Source: Candidatus Latescibacterota bacterium (GTDB lineage: Bacteria; Latescibacterota; UBA2968). From it: 64,000 nt of DNA. The translations under genes and the position numbers were made by a program. The notes beneath the pieces were generated by a model, which saw nothing but the letters and a program-made list of their open reading frames with translations, was not told where the DNA came from and did not search any database. Below, one piece after another: positions 17,642 through 49,962 of the stretch. Location of the stretch: assembly GCA_965222605.1 (NCBI GenBank), contig OZ244960.1, forward strand, positions 416,001-480,000. Direction: 5' to 3'. Every line of letters starts with the position of its first letter. The first letter of the stretch is position 1.

Positions 17642-17663
<22 letters not shown>

Positions 17664-18055
17664 AACGTATCGTCTCGCTGAACTTTGGTTCTATCTGCTT
17701 TATTACAATCAAACAAGGCGAGTTGAATCCCATCAGGGGTATAGATCAGGTAGTTAATATGCATTTGTAGGAGATCTTTCCGTTCCTCTGGTGTGGCTTC
17801 ATTATATAATTCCTCAAAGGTCGTGAGTTTTTGCTGCAACTGAGCAACACTTACGGCCTTTTGTTTTACCTCTGCCAGAGCTACTTCATTATCCATCATC
17901 TCCTGCTCTATTTGGCTTTTTTGCTCTTCCAGTTCGGTAATTTTCTGGATGATGGTTCTAATACCAACTTTCCGTCCAGCGATACTTTCCACCAAGACAC
18001 CCAGCTTCTTATCAATATCTTTGAGGTTTCTGTGATAATTTTCCTGTGCATTCAC
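17642..18055 (-). pseudogene. C-terminal fragment of a large serine recombinase, 5' part lost at the IS5 junction
   Basis: Coiled coil followed by FEELYNEATPEERKDLLQMHINYLIY, typical of LSR C-termini; reads into the tRNA. Confidence 0.75.
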
Positions 18056-18058
18056 TAA

Positions 18059-18985
18059 GAAGCTGTTTTAAAACTATTGTGAGTGAAGAAAAGGGTTGAA
18101 AAAGCGTATTCATCTGTCCAAATTCAGGTTATGCAAATCACCCTGAAACGAAAGGACAAAGATGAATACGCAAAGAGAATATCCGACAAATGTCACCCAA
18201 GCGCAATGGCAACTGCTTCTCCCCTTGCTGCCCAAACGCAAATGGCGAAAAGGCGGCCCTGGACGCCCTCCTGCCAATTTGCGCCAAGTGTTCAATGGCA
18301 TCCTGTATCTGACGAAGACCGGCAGCCAATGGCGCATGCTACCCCATACCTTCGGCTGCTGGCAGACCGTGTATGGCTATTTCAATCGTTGGCGCGAGCA
18401 AGGCATCTTTGAGCAGGTGCAACAGGCACTCACGCGGCGAGAAAGAAAACGGCAGGGACGAGCGCCTACCGCATCAGCAGGCTGCATTGACAGCCAAAGT
18501 GTCAAGACAGCAACACAAGGAAAATCAAAAGGTTATGATGCTGGAAAAAAGGTCAATGGACGCAAACGCCATCTTCTCGTTGATACCCTCGGACTCGTCA
18601 TCAGCACCTATGTCTCGCCTGCTGATCTCCAAGACCGTGATGGCTTAAAGCAGGTGCTCAATCAGTATTTTGACACGGGAGAGACACGCTTACGCAAGCT
18701 ATGGGTCGATGGCGGCTATCGAGGTGAAGACCTCAAGAAATGGGTCGCTGCTAAGAAGCAGACGCATAAGATTGATCTTGAGGTTGTCACCCCAAAAGGC
18801 AAAGGCTTTCAACTCGTCAAACGCCGGTGGGTCGTCGAGCGCACCTTTGCCTAATTATTTAATTTTCGCCGACTATCAAAGGATTATGAAGACTTGACCG
18901 ACAGTAGTGAAGCCTTTATTCACATCGTTATGATTTACCTCTTAATCAACAGACTCGCTTAAGCGAGGGATTTTAAAACAGCTTC
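18059..18985 (+). mobile_element. IS5-family element
   Basis: 15-bp perfect IRs GAAGCTGTTTTAAAA / TTTTAAAACAGCTTC, each flanked by TAA. Confidence 0.9.
18162..18962 (+). pseudogene. IS5-family transposase with a premature stop near the C-terminus
   Basis: IDSQSVK, GRKRHLLVDTLG, RWVVERTFA*, then in-frame LFNFRRLSKDYE... Confidence 0.85.
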
Positions 18986-19446
18986 TAAGCCTTTTTCTCG
19001 ACGTGACTGGCAGCCATTCCAAAAGTGATCCAGGCCATAGGTCTTTTTGCCTGACTTGGGCACAAAGGAGGCATCTAAGACCAGAATACGCCCATGTGCT
19101 TGGTCTTGGTCTCTGCTTTCATTGATGATGGCACGGTTGAAATCCATAAATCGAAAGGGCTTGTCAAACTGACGGGTGTATGTGCGTTCGCAAAGGTGAG
19201 AATACCGTGACAGGTTGCGAAAATTGATTTTACCCCGTGCAATCAGTATGGTCGTAAATAGGGTCATGAGAAACTTTTTTTGGGGCTTGGAAATGTTGAG
19301 CCGATTGAGTATCTTTTCTGCGATTGCCATGGTGCCGTCTCACTCGTTTGGGTTGTCAGTGATCTGGAATATCTTTGACATCCAATCTGCGTGAACGGCA
19401 CTTTTTTGTCTATTCTTTTTTTACTCAAAACTGTCCGAAGTATTGA
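18986..19446 (-). pseudogene. Truncated DDE transposase (IS4/IS701-like), copy 1, with IS end
   Basis: LVLDASFVPKSGKKTYGLDHFWNG; terminal TCAATACTTCGGACAG shared with copy 2. Confidence 0.8.
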
Positions 19447-19518
19447 TATTAAGTCAATAGACAAAATACGACTCTTGACAATTTCGGCAACAGCATCCAA
19501 AGCGGGGTAACTCCAACA

Positions 19519-21819
19519 TCACTTAACAGGATATCCTAAATCCTTTAAGATAGCCTTAGAAAACTCTGTAACAATATCTGCAGACAGGTAAAACTTCTGC
19601 GTAGGGTTACTATCAAGCCTAGTATCATATTCTCTATTCCAGGTTCCTCTCATAGACATTATATCACGAGGAACACCTAGATGAGTGCCATTACGATGAA
19701 GAGGTATTCCTGAAGCGTCTACCCAATTACCTCTTACAAGATAATTATCACTACTAAGACTAGACTGAGTAGTGATATCTCGATCTCCAATATAAGAATC
19801 TCCTGGCGAGTATCTCCATGATACGTAGAGCATCCAATAGTGATCTGAAGAACGATTAGATCCAGAATAACCGTTAATATAAGAATTAAACACTTCTTTG
19901 CTAGCAGGACCAACAAATATCCTGTCAAAGTATAAATCTTTTGCCTCTATCTTCCAACGGTTCCTACTATGGCCGTCAATAGCAGGCTCATCGCCAGATG
20001 AAGGAAGACTACCTGGATCTAATGGTTTATGTATAGCTATACCATGAGATACTTTATCCTCAGACAAGTATTGAGTATTAGCATCCCAAAGCCCTTTGTG
20101 ATTATCTCCGTAGTAACCTACAATATCCTCAACATAACGGTTCCAAATCGGATGACCATTGTGACCGGTATCACCAATACCTAAAACATGACCTATTTCA
20201 TGTTTGGCTACCCAAAACTGATCAACAAGTGATTTTGATGCAATACTTATTACACCAACAGCGGTTGGTCCACTGTCTCGCCACTCATAACCTAAAGCAG
20301 AACCTCCAACATTTGATTCCATTTCAGAAACGACATATACTAACAAATCGTCAACCTCTCGATCCTCTGGCAAGATAGTTATCGTCTTACCAGAATAACG
20401 TATCTTAGACCTCTGTAAGGTATGACCAGGAACTCCTCTTGAGAAAACCCGCTCCCAGAAGTTGTTTACACGCCCACGTATTAAGGTAGAATCAGGAAAA
20501 TCGGACTTGTCAACAAATACTAACTTTATATCAAAAGTATTATCAAAGTCAGAACCTCCTGGATTGTCAGGAGGAGTAGTATTGGTAGAAGTAACAACTT
20601 TAACAGAACTTCTACCTGTATTGACATCTGATGAACGAGGAGTATTAGAGGAACGAGGAGTATTAGAGGAACGAGGAGTATTAGAAGAACCTCTACCTGA
20701 ATATAAAGAGTTAGGATTTAAAAAACCACAATGCTCACCATAAAAACACAACGTATCACTACTCGCTATCACACCGTAATAACCCTTACCATGTTCCTCT
20801 AACTGACTATCTACTATCTCACGATGAACATAAAATGTACCGTCATAAACATAATTCTCATCCGAATTAGAACGACCGTTAAGTGTACGAATAAATACCG
20901 CATACGGACCCTCACTACCCTTAACACCATATCCCCACTCCGGCTCCTCCGTATCAAAATCATCAAACTCTATCGTGCCACGATAACTACCTCGCGGTAT
21001 CAATACCTTACGAACAGTACCATGATTCGCATTCCTGAAAACTAAACCAATATCCAAATCATGAGTAGCAGGAAACGGAATACTTACCTCAATCTCTGAA
21101 GGGTGAGCAATAGACTCATTAACACTGTCCAACCGACGCAAATTAAAACGAATAGGAAACTCCTCTCCCGGATTATTCTGCAAATGTACCGCCCGCAAAC
21201 TATCTAAACTGTAAAATATACTATCCGCCAATACCGATATATTGTTCCTGTTCAAAAATAGCTTCTTCACACTACTCAACCCACCAAAAGAATAAATATC
21301 TATATGCTCCAAACCATTATCCTCTAAACGCAATACCCGAACACTATCAAATCCAACAAAATCACCCCGACGCAACGAAATTATACCCAAATTACGCAAA
21401 TCTAATGTATCTCGAAAACTATTTAAATCATTTAACGTAACATCACCGCACGCCTTGTCACCACCCAAAATACGCAATACCTCCGTCTCTATCTCCGAAG
21501 TACGACCACAAAAAGAAAAATCTTCCTCATTATCAATATTATCTCCAAAATAATTATACAACATCATAAAATCCTCATTGTCAATCTTACCATCACTATT
21601 CAAATCAAACTTCGCATCATACTTATCGTCACCTTCAGAACTCGGATAAACATTAGAAAAAGCAAAAAAATCCTCTATCCCTACTATACCATTGCCATCA
21701 AAATCAGCCGATTTATTTTCCTCAACCGTTTGCTCATTATCCTGGTCATCCTGACTATGAACAAACACAGAAACCCCTAATACGAAAAGAATACAAAAAG
21801 TAAAAATTCTTGAAAACAT
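19519..21819 (-). CDS. Secreted protein with dockerin-like/EF-hand pair, LRRs and an HEXXH zinc metalloprotease domain
   Basis: Signal peptide, DFDGNGIVG...DLNSDGKID, LRRs, AKHEIGHVLGIG; AGGAG RBS; AT-rich. Confidence 0.8.
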   Translation of the reverse strand: MFSRIFTFCILFVLGVSVFVHSQDDQDNEQTVEENKSADFDGNGIVGIEDFFAFSNVYPSSEGDDKYDAKFDLNSDGKIDNEDFMMLYNYFGDNIDNEEDFSFCGRTSEIETEVLRILGGDKACGDVTLNDLNSFRDTLDLRNLGIISLRRGDFVGFDSVRVLRLEDNGLEHIDIYSFGGLSSVKKLFLNRNNISVLADSIFYSLDSLRAVHLQNNPGEEFPIRFNLRRLDSVNESIAHPSEIEVSIPFPATHDLDIGLVFRNANHGTVRKVLIPRGSYRGTIEFDDFDTEEPEWGYGVKGSEGPYAVFIRTLNGRSNSDENYVYDGTFYVHREIVDSQLEEHGKGYYGVIASSDTLCFYGEHCGFLNPNSLYSGRGSSNTPRSSNTPRSSNTPRSSDVNTGRSSVKVVTSTNTTPPDNPGGSDFDNTFDIKLVFVDKSDFPDSTLIRGRVNNFWERVFSRGVPGHTLQRSKIRYSGKTITILPEDREVDDLLVYVVSEMESNVGGSALGYEWRDSGPTAVGVISIASKSLVDQFWVAKHEIGHVLGIGDTGHNGHPIWNRYVEDIVGYYGDNHKGLWDANTQYLSEDKVSHGIAIHKPLDPGSLPSSGDEPAIDGHSRNRWKIEAKDLYFDRIFVGPASKEVFNSYINGYSGSNRSSDHYWMLYVSWRYSPGDSYIGDRDITTQSSLSSDNYLVRGNWVDASGIPLHRNGTHLGVPRDIMSMRGTWNREYDTRLDSNPTQKFYLSADIVTEFSKAILKDLGYPVK
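20633..20690 (-). repeat. 18-bp tandem repeat x3 encoding SSNTPR linker
   Basis: GAACGAGGAGTATTAGAG repeated. Confidence 0.85.
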
Positions 21820-21867
21820 ATTTAACTCCTTATAAAGTGGGCTTGACCGTTTCATTATCAAACGTTT

Positions 21868-22769
21868 TTAGGGTCGAAAATTCTGTAAAAAGGTAGCCCC
21901 GTGATAGGGGTCAGAGATTTTATTTTAAGTACGTCATGTCCAGATATCGTCTGCCTGATATCCACTCGTCAGACCACTCCATACACAAGGCCCCGATCAG
22001 GCGTTCACATGCTTGCTCGTTAGGGAAGATCTGGACCACATCAGCACGTCTTCGGGGTCCACTCCCTGCGATCCCACTGACGATTAAGACGCCTTCAGAG
22101 ACGACCTGCCCAGCAGATCGGATGTAGAGATAGGTCGCATCAATGATCAGATAAGGGTATGCCTGTTCAAGGGGTCGCTCGCGCCAGGCTTTTATGTCTG
22201 CATCTATTTCTTGACACAAGTCAGAGACCTGAGACTTTGAAAAGGAGGTACCACACAACTGTTCTGTGATCTTGGATACTTTGCGTGTGGAGACACCTTG
22301 CAGATACGCCTCTTGAAGGGCAAGAATGAGTGCTTTTTCACTGCGTTGAAAGCGTGCAAATAACCCACTGTGGAATCGCCCTTCCCGATCTTGAGGGACG
22401 CTCAGTTCGATACGGCCAACGCGCGTTTTGACAATCCGAGGTTTATATCCGTTACGGTATCCTGTACGATCTTCGGTTCTTTGATAGGGTTCTGCTTGTA
22501 AAAATGTGGCGATCTCGGCTTCGAGAAACTGCTGCAGGTAGCGGGTCACGATCTGATTGAGAAAATCAGGATCATTCAAAAGTGCGAAACGATGTACAAC
22601 TGGTCGCAGTCCAGATCAGTTCATTGCTCTGGCGCGGCAATTTTAATATCTTTGGGGTAAGTCATCGTAGCCTCCAAGTTGGGGTTAGAATACGTGTCAC
22701 CCCTATTTTAAGATTTTTCTCGGAGCTACGGTGACTTTTTCAATTTTACAGAAATATATGGACGCTATC
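21868..22769 (-). mobile_element. Internally deleted IS256-family element
   Basis: GYRNGY, VPQDREG, GVSTRKV, YPYLIIDA joined directly to C-terminal IFPNEQACERL; ends share TTCTGTAAAA inverted. Confidence 0.85.
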
Positions 22770-23413
22770 CGCTAAATACTGATCTATTCGGGTTTCATCG
22801 TCTGTTTCGGTGTTCTTATTCGCCTTTGTGACAGTCGTTTTTTGCGCCTTCTTGGTGTCCGCTTTAGGTGCGGTTTGAGCAACGGAGAGGGTAAAACCCG
22901 TGTTTTTGTCCACATCCAAAAGCGCAATTCCCAAGATTTCTAAGCCCTTTTCTCGACGCGACTGGCAGCCATTCCAAAAGTGATCCAGGCCATAGGTCTT
23001 TTTGCCTGACTTGGGCACAAAGGACGCATCTAAGACCAGGATACGTGCAGGTGCTTGGTCTTGGTCTTGGTCTTGGTCTATGCTTTCATTGATGATGGCG
23101 CGGTTGAAATCCATAAATCGAAAGGGCTTGTCAAACTGACGGGTGTATGTGCGTTCGCAAAGGTGGGAATACCGTGACAGGTTACGAAAATTGATTTTAC
23201 CCCGTGCAATCAGTATGGTCGTAAATAGGGTCATGAGAAACTTTTTTTGGGGCTTGGAAATGTTGAGCCGATTGAGTATCTTTTCTGCGATTGCCATTGT
23301 GCCGTCTCACTCGTTTGGGTTGTCAGTGATTTGGAACATCTTTGACATCTAATCTGAGTGAACGGCACTTTTTTGTCAATCCTTTAGATCATAAAAACTG
23401 TCCGAAGTATTGA
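22770..23413 (-). pseudogene. Truncated DDE transposase (IS4/IS701-like), copy 2, cut by IS256
   Basis: Near-identical to 18986-19446. Confidence 0.8.
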
Positions 23414-23457
23414 TAATAATAATAAACAAGTCCGGAAGGTGATAAATCCCAAACTAC

Positions 23458-24759
23458 CTACCTGTTACTCACCCTCCAAGCGGCCATTTCTATATGAGCA
23501 TTTCTTGCTACGACGTATTTACCATCTGGACTGAAAGCAACTACATCATTGCGACTACCAAGAGAGTATATCTCATCAGTAACAAACTCAATCGTAAATT
23601 CCTGCTGCCCAATTGGGTTCTTTAACTTCACCATTGCCAATGCCTGGCGATATCCCGGATCTATTGAGAGATAACCTGTCTTAGTAACCCTATCCCAATT
23701 GTTGAAAAGACTACGGGCATCATCTCTATTGATCTCCAGCCTTCTGTTATAACTCTGGCTTTCTCCGTTGAGGGTTACCTCAAAAGTAACGGGGAAGTAT
23801 TCCTCATTGGCATTGTATGTATCCAGTGTCACTGTAATGTCGTTCGTTCGAAAAACTCTGCGATACAATTGCCCGATTTGGGCTTGCTTATCCTTAAATC
23901 CGTAGCGTTCTCGAAGCTCCCGACGAGCCTTTGCCTCTATGGAATCCAATTGGTTTAAACGAGCCGCATATTGTTCATCGGATTCAAACTGATCTTTGGG
24001 GCCGCTAAGTCGGTGATTTTCTCGCTTTTCAGCGATCTCTTGCTCAATCTGTTCAAGTTCAGCCTTAAGGGTTTGTATTTGAGCAACGGTGTCGTCAAAC
24101 GTATTCCCACCTTCAACAGTAACGCGGACCCCTGAGGAACAGTTATTTTGTGTATTGCTCTCTCCACTCACGCTTTCCACACAAGCACCGTAGTAATAGA
24201 AACCAGCAGTATTTGGTGCTTTCAAGCTGATTGACTCAGAACTGGTGTCAGAAGCCGATATACTCCCCACCGCGTCGTCACCTGCTGACGTGTCGTTGAT
24301 CGTAATTGTCGCGTCGGTCGAGCGATAATAGCGCAAGGTCGTAGCCTCAGACTGACCATTGCCCTGGTTGCGGACCGTTGCCCGCAGGGTAAAGGATTGT
24401 CCTGGCGTCAAGGTGTCATCACTTACCGAAGGCGATTCAACAATCAGGTCCGGACTACCACTGCCACCGCCACCACCGCCGCTAGTGGTCGGCACCTCTT
24501 TGCCGAAGTTATCGATAAAGATCAGAAAATCCGGAATCCCAATCACACCATTGCTATCCAGATCATACTTCGCTTGATATGTCCCATCGCCCTGGCTTGA
24601 TCCGAACTGATTTACAAATAACAAAAAGTCGGGAATACCAACCACACCATCCCCATCAAAGTCCGAAGAAGGTGTCACAGAGCCAGGTTGTAATTCGACG
24701 CGAGCAGCCAGCGTCACGGTCTCTAATTGCCCACTCCGGCCAATTACACCACGCACCAA
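23458..24759 (-). CDS. Dockerin-like + CARDB/Ig-like + coiled-coil protein, ending at the start of a WD40 repeat (probably truncated)
   Basis: DFDGDGVVGIPDF pair; PDLIVESPSVS...TVRNQG...ESNTQNN; VAFSPDGKY just before the stop and an IS end; no clean signal peptide. Confidence 0.65.
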   Translation of the reverse strand: MVRGVIGRSGQLETVTLAARVELQPGSVTPSSDFDGDGVVGIPDFLLFVNQFGSSQGDGTYQAKYDLDSNGVIGIPDFLIFIDNFGKEVPTTSGGGGGGSGSPDLIVESPSVSDDTLTPGQSFTLRATVRNQGNGQSEATTLRYYRSTDATITINDTSAGDDAVGSISASDTSSESISLKAPNTAGFYYYGACVESVSGESNTQNNCSSGVRVTVEGGNTFDDTVAQIQTLKAELEQIEQEIAEKRENHRLSGPKDQFESDEQYAARLNQLDSIEAKARRELRERYGFKDKQAQIGQLYRRVFRTNDITVTLDTYNANEEYFPVTFEVTLNGESQSYNRRLEINRDDARSLFNNWDRVTKTGYLSIDPGYRQALAMVKLKNPIGQQEFTIEFVTDEIYSLGSRNDVVAFSPDGKYVVARNAHIEMAAWRVSNR

Positions 24760-24875
24760 CCAAATCGCTGTGCCTATACGCGGCGCAGTCGTCGGAGATA
24801 GCCATAGCCCCAGTGAAGGTCTTGTACTTCATACCGTTCATCGCCCTAACGGGACTTAGACTTAATTTTATTAAC

Positions 24876-25075
24876 GCAAAAAGCGTGCCAATGTGAGCGT
24901 TTTTCCAGAAATTTTATTCGTGAAGGGGCGTAAAGAGTTGTTTTACATAAAGAAAAAGAGCTAATCTGACTATATTATATCGTCGCAGAATAGTCGGATT
25001 GGCTCTTTTGCAAGACCTTATATGGTCTTAAAAGACGTACTATAGTCTCAATGGTCCCGAGAGTATAGTACATCC
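24876..25075 (-). promoter_or_regulatory. Enhancer/IHF-like/sigma54 promoter cassette, copy 1
   Basis: TGGCACGCTTTTTGC (24890-24876); palindrome arms at 24959-24973 and 24990-25004; inverted homolog of 28530-28720. Confidence 0.8.
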
Positions 25076-25130
25076 TTAGGTTCTTTCTATGACCAGGCCA
25101 CTTGAGCGCACGGGCAAGGAAAAAAATAAG

Positions 25131-25170
25131 AAAGCCCGTCAATCGATAGTGATCGACGGGCTTTTATTTG
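25131..25170. terminator. Terminator hairpin after the sigma54 activator
   Basis: AAAGCCCGTC...GACGGGCTTT with A/T flanks. Confidence 0.7.
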
Positions 25171-25212
25171 TACTCGAGGTGAGCAGAGGGGTATAATTAC
25201 GATAGCAGTTTA

Positions 25213-28425: not shown

Positions 28426-28529
28426 AGAAAGAACCTTGTGATATGGGTAAAAAGTGGATTCAAAAATTGAATCTCACACTTGCAAAAGAAACATAATATT
28501 GTATCTCACGCGTGCAAAGAAAAATATGA

Positions 28530-28720: not shown

Positions 28721-28784
28721 GTAAACTAATGTTCAAGTCTCGTCAGATGGAATTGACCAATTTTGGGTAACATTTATTGAAGGA

Positions 28785-35052: not shown

Positions 35053-36759
35053 CCCGAAAAATTCATAAAAAAGGTAGTTTCCCTATTCAAGCCATTGTAT
35101 TATATTAGGTTACACTCATAACCATTGAACAATGAACTTGGGAGAAACTACCGTGAACACACAAGATAATCATTGCAAGGTTCCTTTGGCAAGCATTTTC
35201 GGCAAACGTCTCAACCTCGCCTTTGATGGGGGCATCCTCACCAGCGATAGCGGAGCCTTATTGCTTCGAGAAGTGGAGGCCAAAACGGGTATTTTATCAC
35301 GTTTGAGTCGCGCGATTAAAGACCATCGGCATCAAAGTTATGTGGCGCATAGCACGGCAGAGTTGATCAAACAGCGCGTGTTTCAAATTGCCTGTGGGTA
35401 TGAAGATGCCAATGATTGCAATGCCTTACGCAGCGATCCCGGCTTCAAGGTTGCCTGTGATCGCTTGCCCATAAGTGGTGAGAACTTGGCCAGTCAACCC
35501 ACGATGAGTCGGTTTGAGAATCAGATGAGCAGAAGCGATTTGTATCGCGTTGCTCGTGCCTTTGTCGATTGTTTTATTGCTTCGTATAAAAAGCCGCCTT
35601 CGTCGATCATCTTAGATATTGATGATACGCAGGATAGGGTTTATGGGACGCAGCAGTTGTCCTTATTCAATGGGTATTTGGGTGCCTACTGCTACCAGCC
35701 TTTGCATATTTATGAAGGGCAATCGGGCAAGCTAATCACGACGATTTTACGTCCGGGTGTGCGTCCTGATGGCAAACAGATTGTCACCATTCTCAAGCGG
35801 TTAGTCGCTTATATTCGTCAGGCTTGGCCAAAGGTGGCACTCTTTTTGCGAGGCGATGCCCACTTCTCAAGTCCAGAAGTCCAGGACTTTTGTGCGACAA
35901 AGGACCTCTTTTTTATCCTCGGACAAAGTGCCAATACCCGACTCTTAGCCCTTTCAAAGCCCCTGATGGATCAGACCAAAAGCCTTTATGCACAAACCGG
36001 CAAGCCCGTGCGACTTTTTACCTCATTTTATTACCAAGCCCAGACTTGGGCCTGTGCCAGACGCATCTTATGCAAAGCTGAAATCACCACCCGAGGCCAA
36101 AACACACGCTTTGTCGTGACCAACCTTGAAAGTTCAAGGGCCTCCTTTATCTACCAAAATGTCTATTGTGCTCGCGGACAGATGGAAAACTTCATTAAAA
36201 ATCACAAAACCTTTCTCCACTCAGACCGCACATCCTGTCACGCTTTTGGAGCCAATCAGTTCCGCCTCTTCCTCCATTCGGCTGCCTATGTCTTGTTGCA
36301 CACCTTAGCGCACATCGGATTACAAGGCACAACGTGGATAAACGCACAGGTCAATACCCTCCAAAATCGCTTCCTTAAAGTCGCCGGACGCGTCTGTGAG
36401 TTGAAAACAAAGATCACCTTCCATCTGCCTATGTCATTTCCATTGCCACACCTTTTTGATAAAATCCTGTGCAATCTGGCAAAGGCGGTGCCATAACCCA
36501 TCAACGGGGCAGGAATAGGGGTCTGTCCCATCACTTGCTGACTTTACAAATACACGGACTTATCCACAGACAGGACTGGCAAGGGACCGGTCTGTACTTT
36601 TGACACTGGCAGAGCCAGTCAGGGGACGATTTGGGCTGCTTGAACTCTATGAAGACGCCTATGACGGCAGACAAGATAGAAGGCACCCTAATTTTGATGC
36701 TTGGAACCGATGCCGCCTGACAAACAACCCCAACGATTACAGTTCATGAATTAGTCGGG
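35053..36759 (+). mobile_element. IS1380-family element, apparently intact
   Basis: IRs CCCGAAAAATTCAT / ATGAATTAGTCGGG; TTAA duplication at 35049-35052 and 36760-36763. Confidence 0.92.
35132..36496 (+). CDS. IS1380-family transposase
   Basis: FDGGxLTSDSG, GYEDAND, LASQPTMSRFEN, LDIDDT, RGDA, YCARGQMENFIK. Confidence 0.95.
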   Translation: MNLGETTVNTQDNHCKVPLASIFGKRLNLAFDGGILTSDSGALLLREVEAKTGILSRLSRAIKDHRHQSYVAHSTAELIKQRVFQIACGYEDANDCNALRSDPGFKVACDRLPISGENLASQPTMSRFENQMSRSDLYRVARAFVDCFIASYKKPPSSIILDIDDTQDRVYGTQQLSLFNGYLGAYCYQPLHIYEGQSGKLITTILRPGVRPDGKQIVTILKRLVAYIRQAWPKVALFLRGDAHFSSPEVQDFCATKDLFFILGQSANTRLLALSKPLMDQTKSLYAQTGKPVRLFTSFYYQAQTWACARRILCKAEITTRGQNTRFVVTNLESSRASFIYQNVYCARGQMENFIKNHKTFLHSDRTSCHAFGANQFRLFLHSAAYVLLHTLAHIGLQGTTWINAQVNTLQNRFLKVAGRVCELKTKITFHLPMSFPLPHLFDKILCNLAKAVP

Positions 36760-39398: not shown

Positions 39399-39473
39399 CG
39401 CCTGGACGTGTGCGTTTTTGCCACGCCGTACCTGGGCATTGGCGTAACGTCAATTAATGATAGGAGACAAATC

Positions 39474-42149: not shown

Positions 42150-42213
42150 CAGAATCACCAACGAAAGGAAGGCACGTTATGTGGGAATCAGATTTTACAG
42201 GGAGGCGAAACCA

Positions 42214-42612
42214 ATGTGGCCTATAATAGTAAAAATCGGCAAGGGTATCTTTAAGACTTTGGCCTTTTTGCTCCGTAATGTAATGGCAATAGTAGCCCTC
42301 ATTATAGCTGGGCTGGCCTATATCAACCAGACTGTAGCTAATAACACACAAAAAATTATAGAAGTTAATCAGGGCATCTCGGCGAAGGTTGAGAGTCTGG
42401 ATGCGACTACCCTGAAGTTGTTGGCACAACAGGATTCTATAAAGAAAATTTTGTTGTCCCAACAAGGCGGGATAGGCAGCCTAAAATTCCAAATTGACTC
42501 GTTAGATGAGTGTATAGACAGGTACTTTCACTCTGTAAACAAGACCTTAAATACACGCTTTTCATATATTGACGGTCGGCTACATGATATAAAAGAAGGC
42601 GCACCGCGATAG
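42214..42612 (+). CDS. Hypothetical single-TM coiled-coil protein
   Basis: GGAGG RBS, hydrophobic helix, heptad-like tail. Confidence 0.6.
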   Translation: MWPIIVKIGKGIFKTLAFLLRNVMAIVALIIAGLAYINQTVANNTQKIIEVNQGISAKVESLDATTLKLLAQQDSIKKILLSQQGGIGSLKFQIDSLDECIDRYFHSVNKTLNTRFSYIDGRLHDIKEGAPR

Positions 42613-42639
42613 CAGGGGTAGCTAATGACAGGAGACATC

Positions 42640-43599
42640 ATGCGACAAATGCTTATTGCCTTTTTCATTCCGGCCTTATTGGGATTCTTCGCGGTTGCAT
42701 CTGCCCAACTACCGCCAGAGATCATGGTGGACAAACATTTGCTTCAGGCAGAACAGTTACTTGAGAAAAAAGACTATGCGGAAGCCTTCAAAGTGATGGA
42801 AAAGGTTATCGCGCTACAAAAAGAGCATAATCTCACATTGCCGGTCGAATTTCATTTCAAGTATGCACAGGTGGCTTTGGCAGCAGATTCTACCCGGATC
42901 GCGCTTGAGTCGGTGACAAGGTATCTATCGGCAACAGGGAGAGGGGGAGAGTTTTACAAGGAAGCACTGGCGTTGTTGATCGAGGCTGAAGGAATACCGA
43001 TCAGTACCGAGGAAACGTGTACTGGAAAGCCTTTAGGTTCGAGTTGCTGGATGGCATTGGCTGACCGTCCTGAATGCTATGTCTGGAACCCTTATCTTCA
43101 AGAGGACGAGACTGTAACCTGGTCTGGCAGGTGTTCGGGTAATGTGGCCCAGGGGGAAGGGACAATCACATGGGAGAATTGGGGGACAAGCCAGTACAAT
43201 CCGAACACGAAAGAATACGAGCCGATAAAATCAGCGTCAACATCTACGGGAGTCCTTCAGAAAGGCATAATGCACGGCAAATGGGTCGAACGTGACGAGA
43301 GAAGGACAGCGGAAGGCCCCTATGTGGATGGCAAGCGGCACGGGCATTGGGCCACACGTTACGCGAATGGAGGTGGAGAGGAAGGCCCCTATGTGAACGG
43401 CAAGAAGCATGGGCTTTGGGTTGATCATCACGCTTCCGGGTACAAAGATAAAGGTGAATATATAGACGGCAAAAGAGAAGGCAGGTGGTTAGTATTGGGT
43501 TTTGACATGTCCGATAATTTGACCTGCTGGTCCATAGTATATCGTGAAGGTGGAGAGGTAGGAAGAAATGAGTTAGATCGGGGAGCGTGTCAGTGGTGA
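42640..43599 (+). CDS. Secreted QLPPE-module + MORN-like repeat protein (paralog)
   Basis: Same architecture as 31426-32439. Confidence 0.85.
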   Translation: MRQMLIAFFIPALLGFFAVASAQLPPEIMVDKHLLQAEQLLEKKDYAEAFKVMEKVIALQKEHNLTLPVEFHFKYAQVALAADSTRIALESVTRYLSATGRGGEFYKEALALLIEAEGIPISTEETCTGKPLGSSCWMALADRPECYVWNPYLQEDETVTWSGRCSGNVAQGEGTITWENWGTSQYNPNTKEYEPIKSASTSTGVLQKGIMHGKWVERDERRTAEGPYVDGKRHGHWATRYANGGGEEGPYVNGKKHGLWVDHHASGYKDKGEYIDGKREGRWLVLGFDMSDNLTCWSIVYREGGEVGRNELDRGACQW

Positions 43600-43658
43600 G
43601 CAAATCAGGCGTATTTATGTAATCAGAATGAGAGCGCGGTACCTGGTGTTCACCCGGG

Positions 43659-43900
43659 TTGCCGCGGCGGATCCATAGGAAAGACCGGGAGCGGTTGATG
43701 CAGGCGATTCGGAAGTCAAAGCTTCGGCAATGCCTGCTCTTTACCTCACTCGCCGAAACCGAACTTCGGAAAGTAATGCGTCCAGCCGGAGTCCGTGTGC
43801 TAAAGTTTGGGACAGCGAATGCGAAGAGACGGTCGCTGGCGAACAGATTCGCACTCGTGAGAAAGATATGTTGAAGTTCTCAATGGTGGACTCCAGCAGG
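43659..43900 (+). pseudogene. Possible degraded tyrosine recombinase fragment, copy 2
   Basis: Homologous to 34253-34500; RQCLLFTSLAETELR. Confidence 0.4.
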
Positions 43901-44035
43901 GCAACGGTCAGAGGCATACTTTAGCTTTGACGGGTGAAGTATGCCTCTACTGTTAATGCGGAAAATAAGCATATAACGTAATACCCCATAATTCAAGACA
44001 AAAATGCAAGGAACAGTAAGACATCGGAGGTTCCA

Positions 44036-46390
44036 ATGGCAGTCAATCACAGTGAATCGTATGTATGTCCTCCCAAGTGTAAGTCATTCAAGATTCCAAA
44101 GGACATCCTGAATGAAGAACTTGAAGTCATACGCAAGAGGCGGGAAGCTGTTCGTTGCGAGTCCTCGGATGAGACGCAGGCTGAAGCCAAGTCTGATGAA
44201 CAAAAAGCCGAAGAACCGAAACTCAAAAAAAATCTCGTTGGTCTGGCACTTTCCGGGGGAGGAATCCGGTCAGCGACTTTCTCACTGGGGGTTATGCAAA
44301 GACTCGCCAAAGAGGGTTGCCTCAAACATGTAGATTATCTCTCGACGGTTTCCGGAGGCGGATACATCGGAGGTGCTTTGACATGGCTCCTCAGTAACAA
44401 AGTTAGAAAACTAAGGAAAGACGAAGATCCCTGGAACACCAGTGCAAATTTCCCGTACGGCGTTAAAGATCCGAGAGAAGAACGACGACGCAAGAACGAG
44501 TCCAATATTCTCAAACATCTGCGATTACACGGCAAATACCTCATATCCGGCAACGGGATCACGACAACATCGCTAATCGCCGTGATTCTCCGGGGCATTC
44601 TTCTCAACCTTTTGGTGTGGCTACCGCTGGTGGTCTTGCTTATGGTCACGCTCATACGTGCATCACGCGTCAGTTGGGATAGTATATGCAATGTCCTTAA
44701 GGAGTTTTGCCAAGCATGCTGGGATGATATATGTAATACCACCAAGGAATTATTTAGTTGGGATGATATATGTAATACCGTCAAGGAGTTTTGCCAAACA
44801 TACAATAAGGATGAACTTGATTTACTGATTTATCTCGCTGTCCTACTGGGGTTCTTGTTCCTACTTGTCAGCATTCTTTATTCTCTGTTCACTCGGAAAT
44901 TCCTGCTTAAAATTCTCAAAGACCCATATCTGTGCCGACGAAATTTTGAAAAGTGGATCCGGTGGGTACTGTGGATAGGTCTGGGGCTACTCATAGTGGG
45001 ATCCCTTCCGGCGGTGGCGGGATGGTTGAAAAACCCCAACGCAAATGGAATCGGCGGCATTGCGTCACTCTTTCTCGGCATCGTTAGCGGTTTATGGTCT
45101 TTTTATCGGTCGGGTCACAACGGAAAGGGAAAGATCTCCCTCAATATTCTCGCGCCGCTTGCGTCCATCCTGTTTCTCTATGGACTGGCGTTGGTGTCGT
45201 ATGAGCTTGCCGTATTGTACTTTAAGACTGACATCGCTGGAAAGTGGATGTTATGGGGATGTGTAGCCTTGTCGTTTTTGACGGGCTGGTATGTGAATCT
45301 CAATTATATCTCGATCCACCGCTACTATCGGGACCGTCTCATGGAAGCTTTCATGCCCTGCCCTAATACGGACGGAAAACCCGCTGCCGCAATAAAGGCC
45401 GACAAGGCGGAACTGAGTGACATGTGGAATAAGCACGCGCCTTATCATCTGGTGAATACCAATGTGATTCTGGTTAATTCGGACGATTCCAGACGGCGGG
45501 TGAGGGGTGGCGATGCCTTTCTTCTTTCGCCAAAGTATTGCGGTAGCACAGCGACGGGTTGGAGAAAAACCGCCTGTTATATGCAGAAAGACCCCCTCAC
45601 TCTGGCAACAGCAGTAGCCATATCTGGAGCTGCCGCCAATCCGAACACAGGTGCCGAGGGATCAAGCCCTACACGAAAACCTTTGTTGTCCCTGCTGATG
45701 GCCTTGCTGAACGTACGCCTCGGTTATTGGGTCCCACATCCCAACCCTGACAAATCCAGGTCCCAAAAGGTCGGGAATCACTTTCGCGCCGCCTACCACG
45801 AACTGAGTCCGCGCGGCTATAAAGAACACCAGAAGTTGCTCCAAATTAGTGACGGCGGTCATTTCGAAAACCTTGGTGTATATGAGTTGGTGCGCCGCAA
45901 AGTAAAGCTAATCATCTGTTGCGACGGCAGTGCTGACCCCGCGTTTAGTTTTTCAGATTTGCAAGTTCTGGTGCGCCGGATCGACACTGACTTCGGGGCA
46001 AAAATCAAATTTGACAAAAACAACTATCTGGAACGCATCATTCCCCGCGATCCAGACCCCCAAAAGGTCATTGACCGAGATCCGAACACCGACGCTTATC
46101 CCGTCGGTATCAAGTTTGCGGAACGAGGCTATATCAAAGGCAAAATTATCTACCCGGATGGGACCAAGGGTACGCTGATCCTGCTCAAAACAACAATGAT
46201 TAAGGGCCTTGGCATACGGCTCAAAGGCTACAAAGGCGCAAACCCTGATTTTCCCGACCAGAGCATTACCGATCAGTTTTTCGATGAAGAACAGTTTGAA
46301 GCATACCGTGAACTGGGTTACGAGATTGCCAGGAGAATGATAAACGACCCGAGGATAGGCCTCCGGACACTGCTGGATGATTGCAGATGA
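44036..46390 (+). CDS. Patatin/cPLA2-like phospholipase with an inserted multi-TM region
   Basis: GLALSGGGIRSA, DYLSTVSGGG, ISDGGHFENLG; several TM helices in between. Confidence 0.88.
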   Translation: MAVNHSESYVCPPKCKSFKIPKDILNEELEVIRKRREAVRCESSDETQAEAKSDEQKAEEPKLKKNLVGLALSGGGIRSATFSLGVMQRLAKEGCLKHVDYLSTVSGGGYIGGALTWLLSNKVRKLRKDEDPWNTSANFPYGVKDPREERRRKNESNILKHLRLHGKYLISGNGITTTSLIAVILRGILLNLLVWLPLVVLLMVTLIRASRVSWDSICNVLKEFCQACWDDICNTTKELFSWDDICNTVKEFCQTYNKDELDLLIYLAVLLGFLFLLVSILYSLFTRKFLLKILKDPYLCRRNFEKWIRWVLWIGLGLLIVGSLPAVAGWLKNPNANGIGGIASLFLGIVSGLWSFYRSGHNGKGKISLNILAPLASILFLYGLALVSYELAVLYFKTDIAGKWMLWGCVALSFLTGWYVNLNYISIHRYYRDRLMEAFMPCPNTDGKPAAAIKADKAELSDMWNKHAPYHLVNTNVILVNSDDSRRRVRGGDAFLLSPKYCGSTATGWRKTACYMQKDPLTLATAVAISGAAANPNTGAEGSSPTRKPLLSLLMALLNVRLGYWVPHPNPDKSRSQKVGNHFRAAYHELSPRGYKEHQKLLQISDGGHFENLGVYELVRRKVKLIICCDGSADPAFSFSDLQVLVRRIDTDFGAKIKFDKNNYLERIIPRDPDPQKVIDRDPNTDAYPVGIKFAERGYIKGKIIYPDGTKGTLILLKTTMIKGLGIRLKGYKGANPDFPDQSITDQFFDEEQFEAYRELGYEIARRMINDPRIGLRTLLDDCR

Positions 46391-46541
46391 TTAAAACACG
46401 CGCTCATTTTGTTCGCAATCGGTTTCCCGTTGGAGTTACCCTGTTTTGGTGGAGTATTTAAGGCTTGGGTTCAAGCCTGTGGCCAATGCAGTTTGCCTTT
46501 TCATCACAGGATAGACCTCTCCTGTGCAGACTCTGCAAATC

Positions 46542-46930
46542 CTAATCCGCCTTTAATCCGCGTCCATCTGCGTTCATCTGCGGATAGCTTTTCTCCACCA
46601 CTGGCAACATCACCTTAAACGTCGTGCCCTCCCCCTGTTCGCTCTCGACAGTGATCTGTCCATCGTGATTGCGAACAATAGCATAAATAATCGACAATCC
46701 CAAACCCGTGCCTTGGTCGGCATCTTTTGTCGTAAAAAAAGGCTCAAAAAGACGTTGCCGGGTCGCCTCATCCATCCCAACCCCATTATCCTCTACCTCG
46801 ATAACAACCGCATCGTTCTCAGCACGCGTTCGGATCTGGATCCGCTTATCATAGCCCCCTCCATCTCAGCGCGCTCATCTACTGTGTCCCGAGCATTTGA
46901 CAGCAAATTGAGAACAACCTGCTCGAGCGG
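46542..46930 (-). pseudogene. Histidine kinase HATPase_c remnant
   Basis: LEQVVLNLLSNARD, then after a frame break LFEPFFTTK...GTGLGLS...GEGTTF. Confidence 0.8.
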
Positions 46931-47090
46931 GGATGCGGATACCCCTATACCTTTGGGAGCGCGTCAGAAAGATCCAGCGCGAGATCAATCCCGTGTTTGG
47001 AACAGGTCAAATATGCTTGCTTATCGCGCCGGAAAATATATTTTGGGCGCGATAGGTGTGTCTTTTCAACAACGGAAAGAAAGGTGCATT

Positions 47091-49361
47091 ATGAAGCGTT
47101 TGTGTATCCTGCTTGTGGTCATTGCAATTTGTTTATGGCTGCCTCTGGCGCACACCTCACAATCCAGACCGCTCCCCGACTTTGACGGGAATGGCGCTGT
47201 GGATTTTCCAGACTTCTTGCTTTTTGTCGGCAAATTTGGCTCAAAACAAGGTGATGAGAGGTATGAAGACCGATTCGATCTGGATGGCAATGGCGCGATT
47301 GACTTTTCAGATTTTCTGAGCTTCGTCAACGACTTCGGTAAAGCGTCTCTTGAGGGTGGTGATGAGAATGATGTGAATATACCCGATGCCAACCTGCGTG
47401 CAGTGATTGCAGACAGTCTTGGCAAGGCGCGCGATGAGGCCATCACACGGGTAGAGATGGCAACCCTGACGCACCTTGAGGCCCAGGATGCGAATATCAG
47501 CGATTTGACCGGGTTGCAGTTTGCTACCAATCTGACATACCTGTGGCTTACTGGCAACCCAATAAGCGACCTTTCCGCGTTATGTGATCTGACTAAACTG
47601 AGAGAGCTGATTCTTTTTGGAAACGCAATAACAGATATATCCACGCTGGCCAACCTTCAAAATGTGGGACACCTGAATCTTGGTGGCAATAACATCTCGG
47701 ATATATCCGCCCTGGCGAACCTGACCAACTTGAGTTGGCTGTCGGTTGGCGACAATGCAATAACAGATCTCTCTGCGCTGGCAAACCTGACAAATTTGGA
47801 TTGGTTGGATATTAGCGGCATGAGCATCTCGGATATATCCGCCCTATCTAACCTGACAAATTTAAGGGAACTGAATCTTGACTACACCGGCATCACAGAC
47901 CTCTCTGCGCTATCTAATTTGACAAATCTGACCAGGTTGGGACTTACCACCAACGCAATAACAGATATATCCGCCCTGGCGAACCTGATTAATCTGGAAT
48001 CTCTGGATCTTGGCAGCAATAGCATCTCGGATATCTCTGCGCTTTCTAACTTGACAAATCTGACATACCTGAATCTCAGCGATAACACAATTTCGGATAT
48101 TTCCCCCCTTGTGGCAAATACGGGCATAGGCGGTGAAGACAGGGTTTTTGTGGCAAACAACCCGTTAAGTGCCGAATCGCTCACCACACACCTGCCAGCC
48201 CTTTACAGCAGATTTGACAAAAGTGCGTATCGTGGGCCATGTGTTCCAATCCTTCCAAAAAATCTTTCCGTAGATGCGGGGAGTTCTCACACTTTACAAT
48301 CCAATTACCTGTACGTTGATCACGAGGGAATAAGGCCGGAAGGCCAACGCGGAGGTTTTGCTGCCGTGGCGTATGCCGATTTTAATGAAGACGGTCACAT
48401 CGATATCTTTTATGCACCGAGTGATGGTTGGCAGCACAATACATTTCCCGCGGAGTTGTATCTCAACGATGGCGCAGGGTGTTTCTCCCTTGACGCCAAT
48501 TTCTTTAATGGGAATCCACCGCGTCGGTTAGCACCGCGAAAGGCCCTCCCGGGGGATTTCAACGGAGATGGCCGAATGGACGTTTTTGTGTTGTGCCATG
48601 GCTATGACCAACCACCATTTCCTGGAGAGGCGTCGTATGTGATTCTTTCATCGGCAAACGGATACGTGCTTGGCAGCGGGTTGGACACCTTTATTGGATT
48701 TCAACACGGCGGCGCATCAGGCGATATTGATGCCGATGGGGATATCGATGTATTCGTCACCCACTTAAACTCCAACCAGGCACCGTTTTTTCTCATCAAT
48801 GATGGCAGTGGCTCATTTACAATGGATACAGATCGGACCGAAGGCCTCGCCCATAAGGCGCTATTTACGGCTGAGTTGGTTGATGTTGATGGCGACGACT
48901 TTCTGGACCTGTTGGTTGGAGGTCACGAGTACAACCCCGAAGGAGGGATTTTCCCAACTCAGATCCTGTGGGGTGATAGCACCGGTGTATTCAGCACAAC
49001 CAAAGCGACGAGTCTGCCAGGTGTCGTCGGTCACGGTGTTGTTCCCGACATTGATGTAAGCGACACAGATGGGGATGGTGACAAAGATATCGTGATCAAT
49101 CGAACAGGAAGTGGCGATGAAAACCACCGTTTTTATCAAGGATACTACCTCCAGCTGGTTGAGCAGGTCGGCGTGCGCCGCTTCGAGGATAAGACGGCAC
49201 AGTTACTTTTCAAAAACGAAGACATCAATGCCGATTGGATCACCTGGATCCGCATGTGCGATTGCAATAGCGACGGGCATGTGGATATCGTGGCTGATGA
49301 TGATATCGGTAGAATCTTCATCTGGGAGAATGACGGAACCGGCGCATTTCGGCCGCGATAA
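47091..49361 (+). CDS. Secreted dockerin-like + internalin-type LRR + FG-GAP/VCBS repeat protein
   Basis: MKRLCILLVV signal; DFDGNG pair; IPDANLR cap and 22-aa ISDISALANLTNL repeats; GDFNGDGRMD-type repeats. Confidence 0.9.
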   Translation: MKRLCILLVVIAICLWLPLAHTSQSRPLPDFDGNGAVDFPDFLLFVGKFGSKQGDERYEDRFDLDGNGAIDFSDFLSFVNDFGKASLEGGDENDVNIPDANLRAVIADSLGKARDEAITRVEMATLTHLEAQDANISDLTGLQFATNLTYLWLTGNPISDLSALCDLTKLRELILFGNAITDISTLANLQNVGHLNLGGNNISDISALANLTNLSWLSVGDNAITDLSALANLTNLDWLDISGMSISDISALSNLTNLRELNLDYTGITDLSALSNLTNLTRLGLTTNAITDISALANLINLESLDLGSNSISDISALSNLTNLTYLNLSDNTISDISPLVANTGIGGEDRVFVANNPLSAESLTTHLPALYSRFDKSAYRGPCVPILPKNLSVDAGSSHTLQSNYLYVDHEGIRPEGQRGGFAAVAYADFNEDGHIDIFYAPSDGWQHNTFPAELYLNDGAGCFSLDANFFNGNPPRRLAPRKALPGDFNGDGRMDVFVLCHGYDQPPFPGEASYVILSSANGYVLGSGLDTFIGFQHGGASGDIDADGDIDVFVTHLNSNQAPFFLINDGSGSFTMDTDRTEGLAHKALFTAELVDVDGDDFLDLLVGGHEYNPEGGIFPTQILWGDSTGVFSTTKATSLPGVVGHGVVPDIDVSDTDGDGDKDIVINRTGSGDENHRFYQGYYLQLVEQVGVRRFEDKTAQLLFKNEDINADWITWIRMCDCNSDGHVDIVADDDIGRIFIWENDGTGAFRPR

Positions 49362-49425
49362 GCACAGAAGCCAATTCACCGCTTGATATTTTATTAGAGA
49401 ACGACGGTATCGCAGGCCGTTTTGT

Positions 49426-49962
49426 TTAGCTATCAAGTCTTGATAGCGCGACCTGCGCATAGCAGGCACTTTGTCCTGGATATTGCTCCTCGATCATTTG
49501 CCAAAATTTCCTTCTTTGTCTCTCCTTACTTTGAAGCTGGAGTAACGGCTGTAACCGATAGACAGATAGGGAATCCAGTTTTGGGTCTGAGTCATCCAGA
49601 TTGAGAATAAAATCTTTGATTTTCTCATCCAGTTTGAGCAACTGTAGAATCAAGCGGGTTTTCGTTCTCGAAATTCCCACCTGTTTTGCAAGTGCGGTTT
49701 GAGATTGAACATAGCCCTTTTCAAGCAGTTCGTGATAGTACAGGGCTTTTTTGAGATAGTTGGGTTGGTGCAGTTTTTGGATAAGTAATTGTTTTTTCTT
49801 TTTATGCCCGATTGCGATAATAGGTTTATTATTCCTGCGGATGTGATGGATGGGGAAGTGGTCCCATACGGTAAAAAGTTCAGTGAGTGGATCAGTTGGG
49901 CTACCAAAAAAATAAGGGAACCGATATTTTCGGTTCCCTTTTATTCTATCTCTCATCTCCAT
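49426..49962 (-). CDS. HTH-containing ORF spanning attR; probable C-terminal module of the island recombinase
   Basis: ALYYHELLEKGYVQSQTALAKQVGISRTKTRLILQLLKL; FGS codons are the att core. Confidence 0.65.
   Translation of the reverse strand: MEMRDRIKGNRKYRFPYFFGSPTDPLTELFTVWDHFPIHHIRRNNKPIIAIGHKKKKQLLIQKLHQPNYLKKALYYHELLEKGYVQSQTALAKQVGISRTKTRLILQLLKLDEKIKDFILNLDDSDPKLDSLSVYRLQPLLQLQSKERQRRKFWQMIEEQYPGQSACYAQVALSRLDS
49914..49943. terminator. Bidirectional terminator; probably the original tRNA-fMet terminator
   Basis: AAGGGAACCG-ATATTTT-CGGTTCCCTT, 5 bp after the second GCTACCAAA. Confidence 0.75.

Follow-up and report, generated by a model that had tools for sequence, protein, structure and literature searches.

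How does a gene come to lie in two pieces at the two ends of a mobile element, and what becomes of the enzyme that it encodes? The question is raised by a stretch of 64,000 nucleotides (hereafter the window) from a Candidatus Latescibacterota bacterium (contig OZ244960.1, positions 416,001 to 480,000), in which two minus-strand open reading frames (ORFs), 32 kb apart, carry the same nine base pairs in the same reading frame, one of them at the 3' end of a tRNA-Met gene. The best explanation overall, and one that we regard as probable by a small measure, is that what remains in the window is a dead copy of an element whose attachment site, attP, lies within the reading frame of its own large serine recombinase (LSR) gene and splits that gene, and that the resulting long and short isoforms differ in the pairs of att sites they recombine. 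The comparisons described below establish, at the level of DNA, that attP lies inside the ORF in a linker between a complete LSR body and a C-terminal module, that integration splits the gene, and that the long ORF exists as contiguous DNA. The LSR body consists of a catalytic domain, a recombinase domain and a zinc domain with a coiled coil, and the module of a conserved beta-hairpin and a ParB-type helix-turn-helix (HTH).

The boundaries of the element are defined by the following features:

17587-17663, plus strand: tRNA-Met(CAT) gene, initiator-like (CGCGGGG...GCTACCA), called by ARAGORN; the same gene is found at the empty site of genome G014
17657-17665: attL core GCTACCAAA, overlapping the tRNA-Met 3' end; its minus strand, TTT GGT AGC, is F-G-S of the LSR
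49900-49908: attR core GCTACCAAA, the second copy of the 9-mer
17657-49908: integrated island, 32,252 bp with one core counted, recognised from empty sites, Pfam and comparison with intact elements
49909-49943, plus strand: native flank 3' of the tRNA, in which a hairpin (GGGAACCGA/TCGGTTCCC) and then a T run form a terminator (hairpin and T run at 49916-49942)

By itself the 9-mer repeat is near chance level in 64 kb, and empty sites were therefore sought: the sequence left of the island (16400-17656) and that to its right (49909-51100) were compared with 20 congeneric genomes. Those relatives that came with a name are closed metagenome-assembled genomes labelled Candidatus Latescibacterota. 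The two flanks lie exactly 9 bp apart in eight of the 20 congeners (G014, G017, G008, G005, G011, G002, G020 and G010) and 8 bp apart in G015. At G014 the empty site reads ...GCTACCAAAAAAATAAGGGAACCG... / ...GGTTCAAATCCCCCCCCCGCTACCAAAAAAATAAGGGAACCG..., that is, tRNA, core and terminator, with the same terminator hairpin directly 3' of the tRNA. The homologous site of G007 is occupied by 41.6 kb that include an intact LSR, remnants of 2-7 kb occupy it in G019, G012, G013 and G004, and the rest of the congeners gave partial flank matches or flanks on separate contigs. Because the empty sites hold exactly the 9-bp core, the island is 17657-49908, and its boundaries are proven genuine. The empty sites also supplied the attB sequence. 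The last 7 nt of the tRNA-Met gene fall within the att core and are element-derived. At the other end, ORF 49426-49962 begins beyond the tRNA terminator hairpin, and its read-through of the hairpin is due to chance. In the tRNA-Met gene C1 stands opposite U72 (CGCGGGG...CCCCGCT-ACCA), in the occupied site and in the G014 empty site alike, and 40 of the 49 tRNA genes that ARAGORN calls in this genome end in CCA.

The two end ORFs and the gene beside the first of them are:

17642-18055, minus strand: C-terminal 137 aa of an LSR (coiled coil, last beta-hairpin and tail), 63-81% identical to the closest 33 LSRs
49426-49908, minus strand: the module split off the LSR, consisting of the core F-G-S, 157 residues and a stop, with no start codon of its own; it aligns to protein P0037
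18162-18854, plus strand: IS5-type transposase ORF (DUF4096 and DDE_Tnp_1; Pfam E 5.8e-29 and 1.4e-24)

The first ORF ends ...VQRDDTFGSGGGI / ...KVQRDDTFGSGGGI, four codons past the core and within the antisense of the tRNA gene (GGGI*), and the second, 49426-49962, reads MEM...RFPYFFGSPTDPLTELFTVWDHF... / ...RFPYFFGSPTDPLTELF..., with 157 residues following FGS. An earlier note on this DNA, made from its letters, had read the core as in frame in both ORFs, had the integrated recombinase stop four codons into the tRNA, and had calculated that circularising 17657-49908 would add 157 residues with an HTH. All of this is borne out, the minus-strand core TTT GGT AGC being in frame in both ORFs and the HTH being detected as PF17762. 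Pfam found no recombinase domain on the 137-aa fragment and gave sub-threshold coiled-coil matches only, so that homology was taken from a protein search. Searched against longer proteins, the fragment gave 39 matches, 37 of which carry LSR Pfam domains, and the recombinase homology proposed for 17642-18055 is thereby confirmed. Most of these 37 are 519-553 aa long with PF00239, PF07508 and PF13408; PF00239, the N-terminal resolvase catalytic domain, is present in 33 of the 39. The other two, P0037 and P0039, carry PF17762 (ParB HTH). P0037 is contiguous across the junction (...LSLLDGEEAAVTAVQRKATTGSPDVGFTEPLGVWDKF...): the LSR fragment of the window aligns to its residues 88-207 (E 4e-26), the module continues over 206-336 (E 7e-24), and the alignments abut at Gly-Ser. 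Read along the coding strand, the window has the module ahead of the LSR end, a circular permutation that points to integration of a circle through a site within the gene, and not to an insertion into the gene.

The window copy has lost its 5' part, as had been noticed before: some 385 codons are gone, LSR homology stops at 18055, beside the IS5-type transposase gene, and PF07508 has no match in the whole genome. PF00239 is likewise missing from the window copy, which comprises the last 137 aa, no other LSR sequence being present close by or elsewhere in the genome; PF07508 and PF13408 with the inserted coiled coil are seen in the relatives, the window keeping the coiled coil onward only. Sequence relatives of the LSR are the integrases of TP901-1 (E 4e-22) and A118 (3e-10) and YokA of SPbeta (2e-9).

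Is the split a peculiarity of this decayed copy? With LSR P0019 as query, matches were obtained in 17 of 61 related genomes, and intact or near-intact LSRs in G020, G003 (two), G014 (two), G007 and G042. In all five genomes with intact LSRs modules are also present, lying 21-41 kb upstream of the LSR and on its strand, the pairs (module / LSR) being:

G020: 652624 / 673283
G014: 3879515 / 3854966
G014: 981718 / 960935
G007: 4670334 / 4629130
G042: 5590553 / 5627856

Remnants of such pairs were seen in G007 (9 kb apart), in the genome of the window itself (4.4 kb, tRNA-Gln) and in G011 (1.6 kb). The same-strand order of module, LSR and tRNA recurs in G020, G014 (twice), G007 (twice), G042 and the G011 remnant. 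Sixteen distinct LSR ends enter an antisense tRNA, with these targets:

tRNA-Met, two kinds: core (T/A)TTGGTAGC
tRNA-Gln, ttg and ctg: core GTTGGTTGC
tRNA-Asn: core TCTGGCTCC
tRNA-Glu
one Arg-like tRNA fragment

Running into antisense tRNA explains the varied LSR tails in the database (GGGI*, GRGTRTPD..., CPPGIRTP..., GGRTRTYD...), and in these short forms 4 to about 30 antisense-tRNA residues replace the 157-residue module. None of the 16 LSR ends has a stop before the core. Module starts bear the matching core, read x-G-S/C-P in the module frame, and the phase of the core is identical at LSR end and module start in every same-genome pair examined (window, G007 twice, G014 twice, G020, G042 and the G011 remnant). 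The frame across the core in related islands, which the earlier note had named among its tests, is thus not random in the window's clade, and the note's proposal that recombination adds or removes a whole domain is supported by the empty sites, the abutting P0037 alignments and these in-frame pairs. A scan of genome contigs with a single peptide pattern gave 12 loci, all in Latescibacterota, a result that is not informative on wider distribution. The module had no tblastn match in 50,697 phage records; a PHROG match was obtained to phrog_14161 ('recombinase', E 1.9e-5).

LSR end and module also occur as contiguous, in-frame DNA in chromosomes, at L025 (open frame of 233 aa), L033, L036 and L060 (372-aa ORF), and as proteins in P0037 and, partially, in P0039, P0049 and P0056. 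We infer that the chromosomal junctions are scars of tandem arrays at tRNA hot spots. The expectation that single ORFs combining LSR and HTH could be found thus stood in part: contiguous in-frame ORFs exist (those named, P0056 aside), none of them full-length (at least 600 aa). A palindrome, GTTCAG-N37-CTGAAC, spans the junctions and is centred on the core. Six distinct contiguous sites have N37 and one has N36, against 0.4 expected by chance in 683 kb. In the window one hexamer stands at each end of the island:

17678-17683, minus strand: P-arm motif GTTCAG, outer attP half-site, coding for V-Q of KVQR
49878-49883, minus strand: P'-arm motif CTGAAC, outer attP half-site, coding for E-L of TELF

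To judge from its letters, this stretch of about 49 bp has typical LSR attP anatomy, with inverted-repeat half-sites round a centre and hybrid attL and attR. The central 7-9 bp of attP are the end of a tRNA gene (acceptor end, discriminator and encoded CCA) and read Gly-Ser or Gly-Cys. In nine of nine tRNAs with an encoded CCA, the T-loop GTTC lies at -19..-16 from position 72. A general rule for LSR sites has the half-site motif 5 bp nearer in attB than in attP. We looked in attB for half-sites with GTTC/GAAC symmetry and dropped the idea: the downstream GAAC is present at the tRNA-Met terminator only and absent at tRNA-Gln(ttg), and we claim no conserved B arm.

Four module copies in three genomes (L042, L043, L045, which equals L071, and L046) are preceded by about ten LSR codons (..QIDQVQREDIFGS..) and share the breakpoint agatagatcaa(a)gttcag; the attP-like site is complete in L045 and L046 and nearly complete in L042 and L043. 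These copies may be tandem-array scars, or small non-autonomous attP cassettes movable by an LSR in trans. L061, a metagenome contig of 3479 bases, is 99-100% identical to P0037 residues 1-205 and ends one residue before the Gly-Ser core, as expected of a branch of the assembly graph at an att site.

Does the module have a start of its own, and does it evolve as a coding sequence? In the window's clade (Latescibacterota) the module has no in-frame ATG, GTG or TTG within the element ahead of the HTH, and eight of 17 attR-type module starts have none between the nearest upstream stop and the core either (L085, L092 and L009 were excluded from the 17 as alignment artefacts or a weak match). A conserved start inside the island, which the earlier note had named as contrary to a fusion, is therefore absent from this clade. 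The ratio of non-synonymous to synonymous substitution rates (dN/dS) has a median of 0.21 for the module (range 0.09-0.37; 242 pairs, 24 sequences) and the same median, 0.21, for the LSR C-terminus (55 pairs), the pairs being related and not independent in both cases. By this measure the module evolves as a coding sequence under purifying selection. A profile search returned 2300 relatives of the module, including 234 with E <=1e-10. The N-termini of such proteins (P0048, P0060, P0079, P0101, P0103 and P0165) are mutually unrelated in the part that precedes the conserved GSP, as expected of attR fragments with chance starts. At the upstream end of ORF 49426-49962, the letters TGATG (49960-49964) overlap its ATG with the stop of an XRE-type HTH gene (49962-50489, minus strand). 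Translational coupling of the module to this gene was considered and discarded: at this site the intact element of G007 shows a stop and lacks a start, and the overlap is probably due to chance.

What might such a module do to the enzyme? Two parts can be distinguished in it:

49483-49761, minus strand: ParB/Noc-type HTH domain (PF17762, 29.3 bits against a cut-off of 22.6)
49810-49875, minus strand: conserved beta-hairpin segment FTVWDHFPIHH...KPIIAI, with nearly invariant W, D, I, I and G; strands in the AlphaFold2 (AF2) model and predicted LSR contact

The module matches Noc/ParB/Spo0J chains (PDB profile E 2e-8) in its HTH part only, and its top Foldseek matches are Noc 7ng0 (TM 0.49) and ParB 6sdk (TM 0.44-0.49 overall). 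The N-terminal ParB/Srx CTP-binding domain of ParB was not found in the module, Pfam giving PF17762 only. In the AF2 model (predicted local distance difference test, pLDDT, 85.9) strands at 20-25 and 28-33 are followed by eight helices. A partitioning role, which the earlier note had also entertained, has the ParB-type fold as its sole support.

One controlled complex prediction was made, of residues 250-546 of LSR P0019 with the module of the same element (G020). It scored 0.75 (runs of 0.76, 0.75 and 0.73) against 0.20 for the best control; of 80 solved complexes 58 attained the score mark, as did 2 of 110 mismatched pairs, and these counts apply only approximately here since the prediction used our own alignments. 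The contacts agree to at least 78% and the pLDDT of the partner is at least 73. On the module, the predicted contacts are residues 12-22 and 28-33 (FCVWDHFPIHH and KPIIAI of the G020 module), its best-conserved part, and on P0019 they are residues 343-359, 369-373, 450-457, 485 and 491-500. The model of P0019 has strands at 308-327, a helix at 346-359, coiled-coil helices at 363-410 and 416-458 and a final hairpin at 487-496, and the predicted LSR interface consists of the helix 346-359, the bases of the coiled-coil helices and the final hairpin. Among the PDB sequence matches no solved entry combines an LSR with a ParB HTH, which makes recall of a solved complex by the predictor unlikely. According to the available part of one report, verified recombination directionality factors (RDFs) are predicted at the junction of DBD2 and the coiled coil (DBD2-CC), most of them adding a beta strand to the DBD2 sheet (PMC12286644), and the excerpt available of another describes engineered integrase-RDF fusions that favour attL x attR via intra-subunit contacts (PMC5737554). 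The module hairpin is thus predicted to dock on the zinc-domain/coiled-coil junction, the site of RDFs.

One may then picture the following cycle. The circle of the element would carry an LSR-module ORF with attP inside. Integration at the tRNA 3' end leaves a short LSR at attL, running into the antisense tRNA, and leaves the module at attR, 20-40 kb off, devoid of promoter and start codon; excision or a tandem junction would rebuild one long ORF. The circle would make LSR plus module and the integrated element the bare LSR. In the long form, the hairpin is predicted to extend the zinc-domain sheet with its own strands and to grip the coiled coil at its base, and would restrain the hinge. With the hairpin at the RDF site, the isoforms should differ in their preferred att pairs, perhaps as an integrase differs from an engineered integrase-RDF fusion. 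The sign could be either, the module acting like a canonical RDF (a latch) or being needed for integration. A recombination-dependent switch between two enzyme forms is, on this modelling, plausible; that the switch concerns direction has one supporting prediction, the docking at the RDF site. Only tentatively would we go on to suggest that strand exchange toggles the enzyme, with a natural fusion of the integrase-RDF type encoded by the circle and the bare integrase by the integrated element, each DNA state making the isoform that is inactive on its own sites, and that the family reads a universal tRNA geometry.

Several observations weigh against this explanation. The window copy itself is dead and incapable of working. 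All contiguous LSR-module DNA is 5'-truncated or ended by a contig edge, and a full-length long enzyme was not found, the searches of longer proteins with P0037 (607-2000 aa) and P0173 (640-2000 aa) being blank, which is weak evidence. Most module relatives in the database are called as short separate ORFs; the best 150 of the 2300 are nearly all 60-260 aa long, the longest among them having 481 aa. The remaining nine of the 17 attR-type starts do have an upstream in-frame start, at varying positions in the flanking DNA. In a distant metagenomic subclade (L062, L066 and P0036) an extra base brings a TAA into the LSR frame eight codons past the core and shifts the module into frame +1, where an ATG or TTG embedded in the core (xTGGTAGCC) begins a reading (M/L)VARTLDSTNSG, which means that the fusion is not universal. 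The LSR tail of L064 is also in that alternative frame, and there the fusion is restored in another phase. Judging from these reading frames, the module can occur fused or separate, as RDFs can. The monomer model of P0019 is poor where the contacts lie (pLDDT <50 at 347-361 and 456-546), and the complex is a prediction from our own alignments, of two halves of one gene. Finally, a module acting like a canonical RDF would, paradoxically, put an excision-type enzyme on the circle and an integration-type enzyme in the integrated element.

A possible though rather unlikely account retains the split and dispenses with the switch of direction. Here attP would lie in the ORF because a compact int-attP unit is easily exchanged, and the module would be an ordinary ParB-type DNA-binding or regulatory domain serving autorepression, attP-side binding or circle maintenance. 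Its loss would inactivate the enzyme (a partial 'suicide', excision needing the long form in trans) or leave direction unchanged. The helical part of the module, a ParB/Noc/Spo0J-type HTH, fits this account, as do the many decayed copies, together with the want of an intact LSR in the window's own genome, which would be expected if integration were often a dead end. SSV-type integrases, moreover, split on integration, and in the portion available of one paper their compact module is said to favour exchange (PMC8371274). However, the short form retains all canonical LSR domains and is intact in several genomes, and the best-conserved residues of the module are in the hairpin predicted to touch the coiled-coil base, not in the HTH alone.

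Alternatively, the module could be a protein in its own right, such as an RDF or a regulator acting in trans, its in-frame continuity with the LSR being incidental to constraints on the att site. The +1 subclade, with its ATG or TTG in the core and an LSR stop eight codons on, is what such a protein would look like; most module relatives are called as ORFs of 100-200 aa, and RDFs function free or fused, as far as the accessible text of PMC5737554 goes. This seems improbable to us, since the window clade offers no start inside the element and eight of the 17 attR-type copies none upstream either, all 16 LSR ends pass the core without a stop, no stop interrupts the frame through the module in the contiguous copies (L025, 233 aa; L060, 372 aa), and the N-termini of the database ORFs before GSP are unrelated flank sequence. 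That the 9-bp repeat is accidental and the 32-kb stretch no integrated element, as might be imagined since a given 9-mer is expected about 0.5 times per 64 kb on both strands (our own arithmetic) and the island has no transfer or phage genes, is refuted by the precise empty sites in eight of 20 congeners, and with the occupied G007 site, intact LSR included, and the abutting alignments can be considered virtually impossible.

The island in the window is decayed, consisting of cargo and several insertion sequences and lacking the RadC and single-strand annealing protein (SSAP) core genes. Intact elements (at least 21 kb) share a gene block on the strand opposite the LSR, which is absent from the window island and encodes a RadC-like JAB protein (PF04002, E 1e-42), a Rad52/Erf-like SSAP, a DUF1232 protein and several small unknown ORFs; it was seen at L107:6954-9653 (G014) and in homologous regions of G007, G014b and G020. 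One of the unknown ORFs could be a separate RDF. A leucine-rich repeat (LRR) protein is common to the window island and the G007 element at the same tRNA (66-69% identity). Proteins that are secreted or built of repeats abound in the cargo of the window (19519-49361). It includes LRR with dockerin and EF-hand, CARDB with dockerin, and FRG- and HEPN-domain proteins, besides an ankyrin-repeat protein of 913 aa, a patatin-like phospholipase of 784 aa and a sigma-54 activator of 1070 aa that bears Reg_prop/Y_Y_Y sensor repeats. Transposase genes or fragments lie at 18959-19330, 21920-22579, 22746-23297 and 35132-36496, and they include DDE_5 pieces and a Mutator-family fragment, while one DDE_Tnp_1_4 transposase, of 454 aa, looks intact.

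The genome of the window has been struck repeatedly by this element family, and no intact LSR is left in it. Its tRNA-Gln(ctg) (C1:2700936-2701009) and tRNA-Asn(gtt) (C1:5290283-5290358) are followed by scars of LSR 3' ends (..tctcgctgaac/t..), and the 4.4-kb remnant pair at tRNA-Gln has its module at 2696446 and an LSR piece at 2700836. A further module copy, L006 (C1:3255543-3263355), is 85% identical, its core being mutated to TTTAGTAGC, and some 7 kb separate it from an elongator tRNA-Met ending ...GCTAC-TAA. The same downstream flank is found beside both, which suggests a duplicated flank or a rearranged old insertion.

How does this element compare with known systems? The canonical LSRs (TP901-1, A118/LI, SPbeta) resemble it in having resolvase, recombinase and zinc-ribbon domains and an attP of about 50 bp built as an imperfect inverted repeat. 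Their attP normally lies outside the int ORF, whereas here it lies inside, and at least five different tRNA genes serve as targets. In the integration-dependent immunity of mycobacteriophages attP lies in the repressor gene, and integration truncates the protein and alters its properties; there a tyrosine integrase cuts a repressor gene, whereas here the recombinase cuts its own. In the limited literature collection that we searched, no printed case of a serine recombinase with an att site in its own gene was found, and the only precedents for an att site in an integrase gene were tyrosine integrases, those of Mx8 and SSV, which the accessible part of the Islander paper describes as extending across attP (PMC4383910). 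The Mx8 enzyme, IntP/IntX, has attP inside its coding sequence and receives a new 3' end on integration, being modified and not destroyed, as stated in the part available of PMC6070905. The swap of the C-terminus of an otherwise complete integrase is common to Mx8 and the present element, which is no Mx8-type member, being an LSR and not a tyrosine recombinase; moreover, a whole module (beta-hairpin and ParB-type HTH) is removed here, and it survives at the other end of the element. The 'suicidal' SSV-type integrases have att within the ORF, a tRNA target and a gene partitioned to the element ends (available parts of PMC8371274 and PMC7253208), and the former text describes these tyrosine recombinases as exclusively archaeal. 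Att inside the integrase ORF and partition of the gene at a tRNA are found here too. The tyrosine fold, however, is not, the relatives carrying serine-recombinase domains, and while the SSV split cuts through the enzyme, here the canonical LSR domains stay together and the C-terminal module alone is detached. With the engineered integrase-RDF fusions, to go by the accessible part of PMC5737554, the long form would share an accessory part at the LSR C-terminus acting within the subunit, and the interface predicted here is at the same DBD2-CC junction. Those fusions are man-made from separate genes, whereas this one is natural and is made and unmade by recombination itself. The ParB-type HTH of the module is unlike known RDFs, and the module is only a candidate for RDF activity.

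LSRs are valued as tools for genome engineering because they act one way, and they can be reversed only with a separate directionality factor, which is not easily found. The present family is of high interest to the serine-integrase field, though the window holds a dead copy only. If the proposed explanation is true, a natural family that adds and removes a candidate directionality module by recombination would represent a new logic of direction control, and the location of att in the integrase gene, known from the Mx8 and SSV tyrosine integrases, would be extended to serine recombinases. The family would also provide serine integrases that target tRNA genes, which were not known to do so according to the portion available of the 2014 Islander paper (PMC4383910). 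A practical point for annotation is that an LSR gene ending in antisense tRNA and an orphan ParB-HTH ORF beginning with GSP are the two halves of one gene, marking the ends of an island. Should the toggle be real, the element would possess a self-latching two-state switch, making a separate directionality gene unneeded; and should the tRNA geometry be read as the encoded CCA end and the T-loop GTTC at a fixed distance, the family may move among at least five tRNA targets by changing the central Gly-Ser/Gly-Cys codons only.

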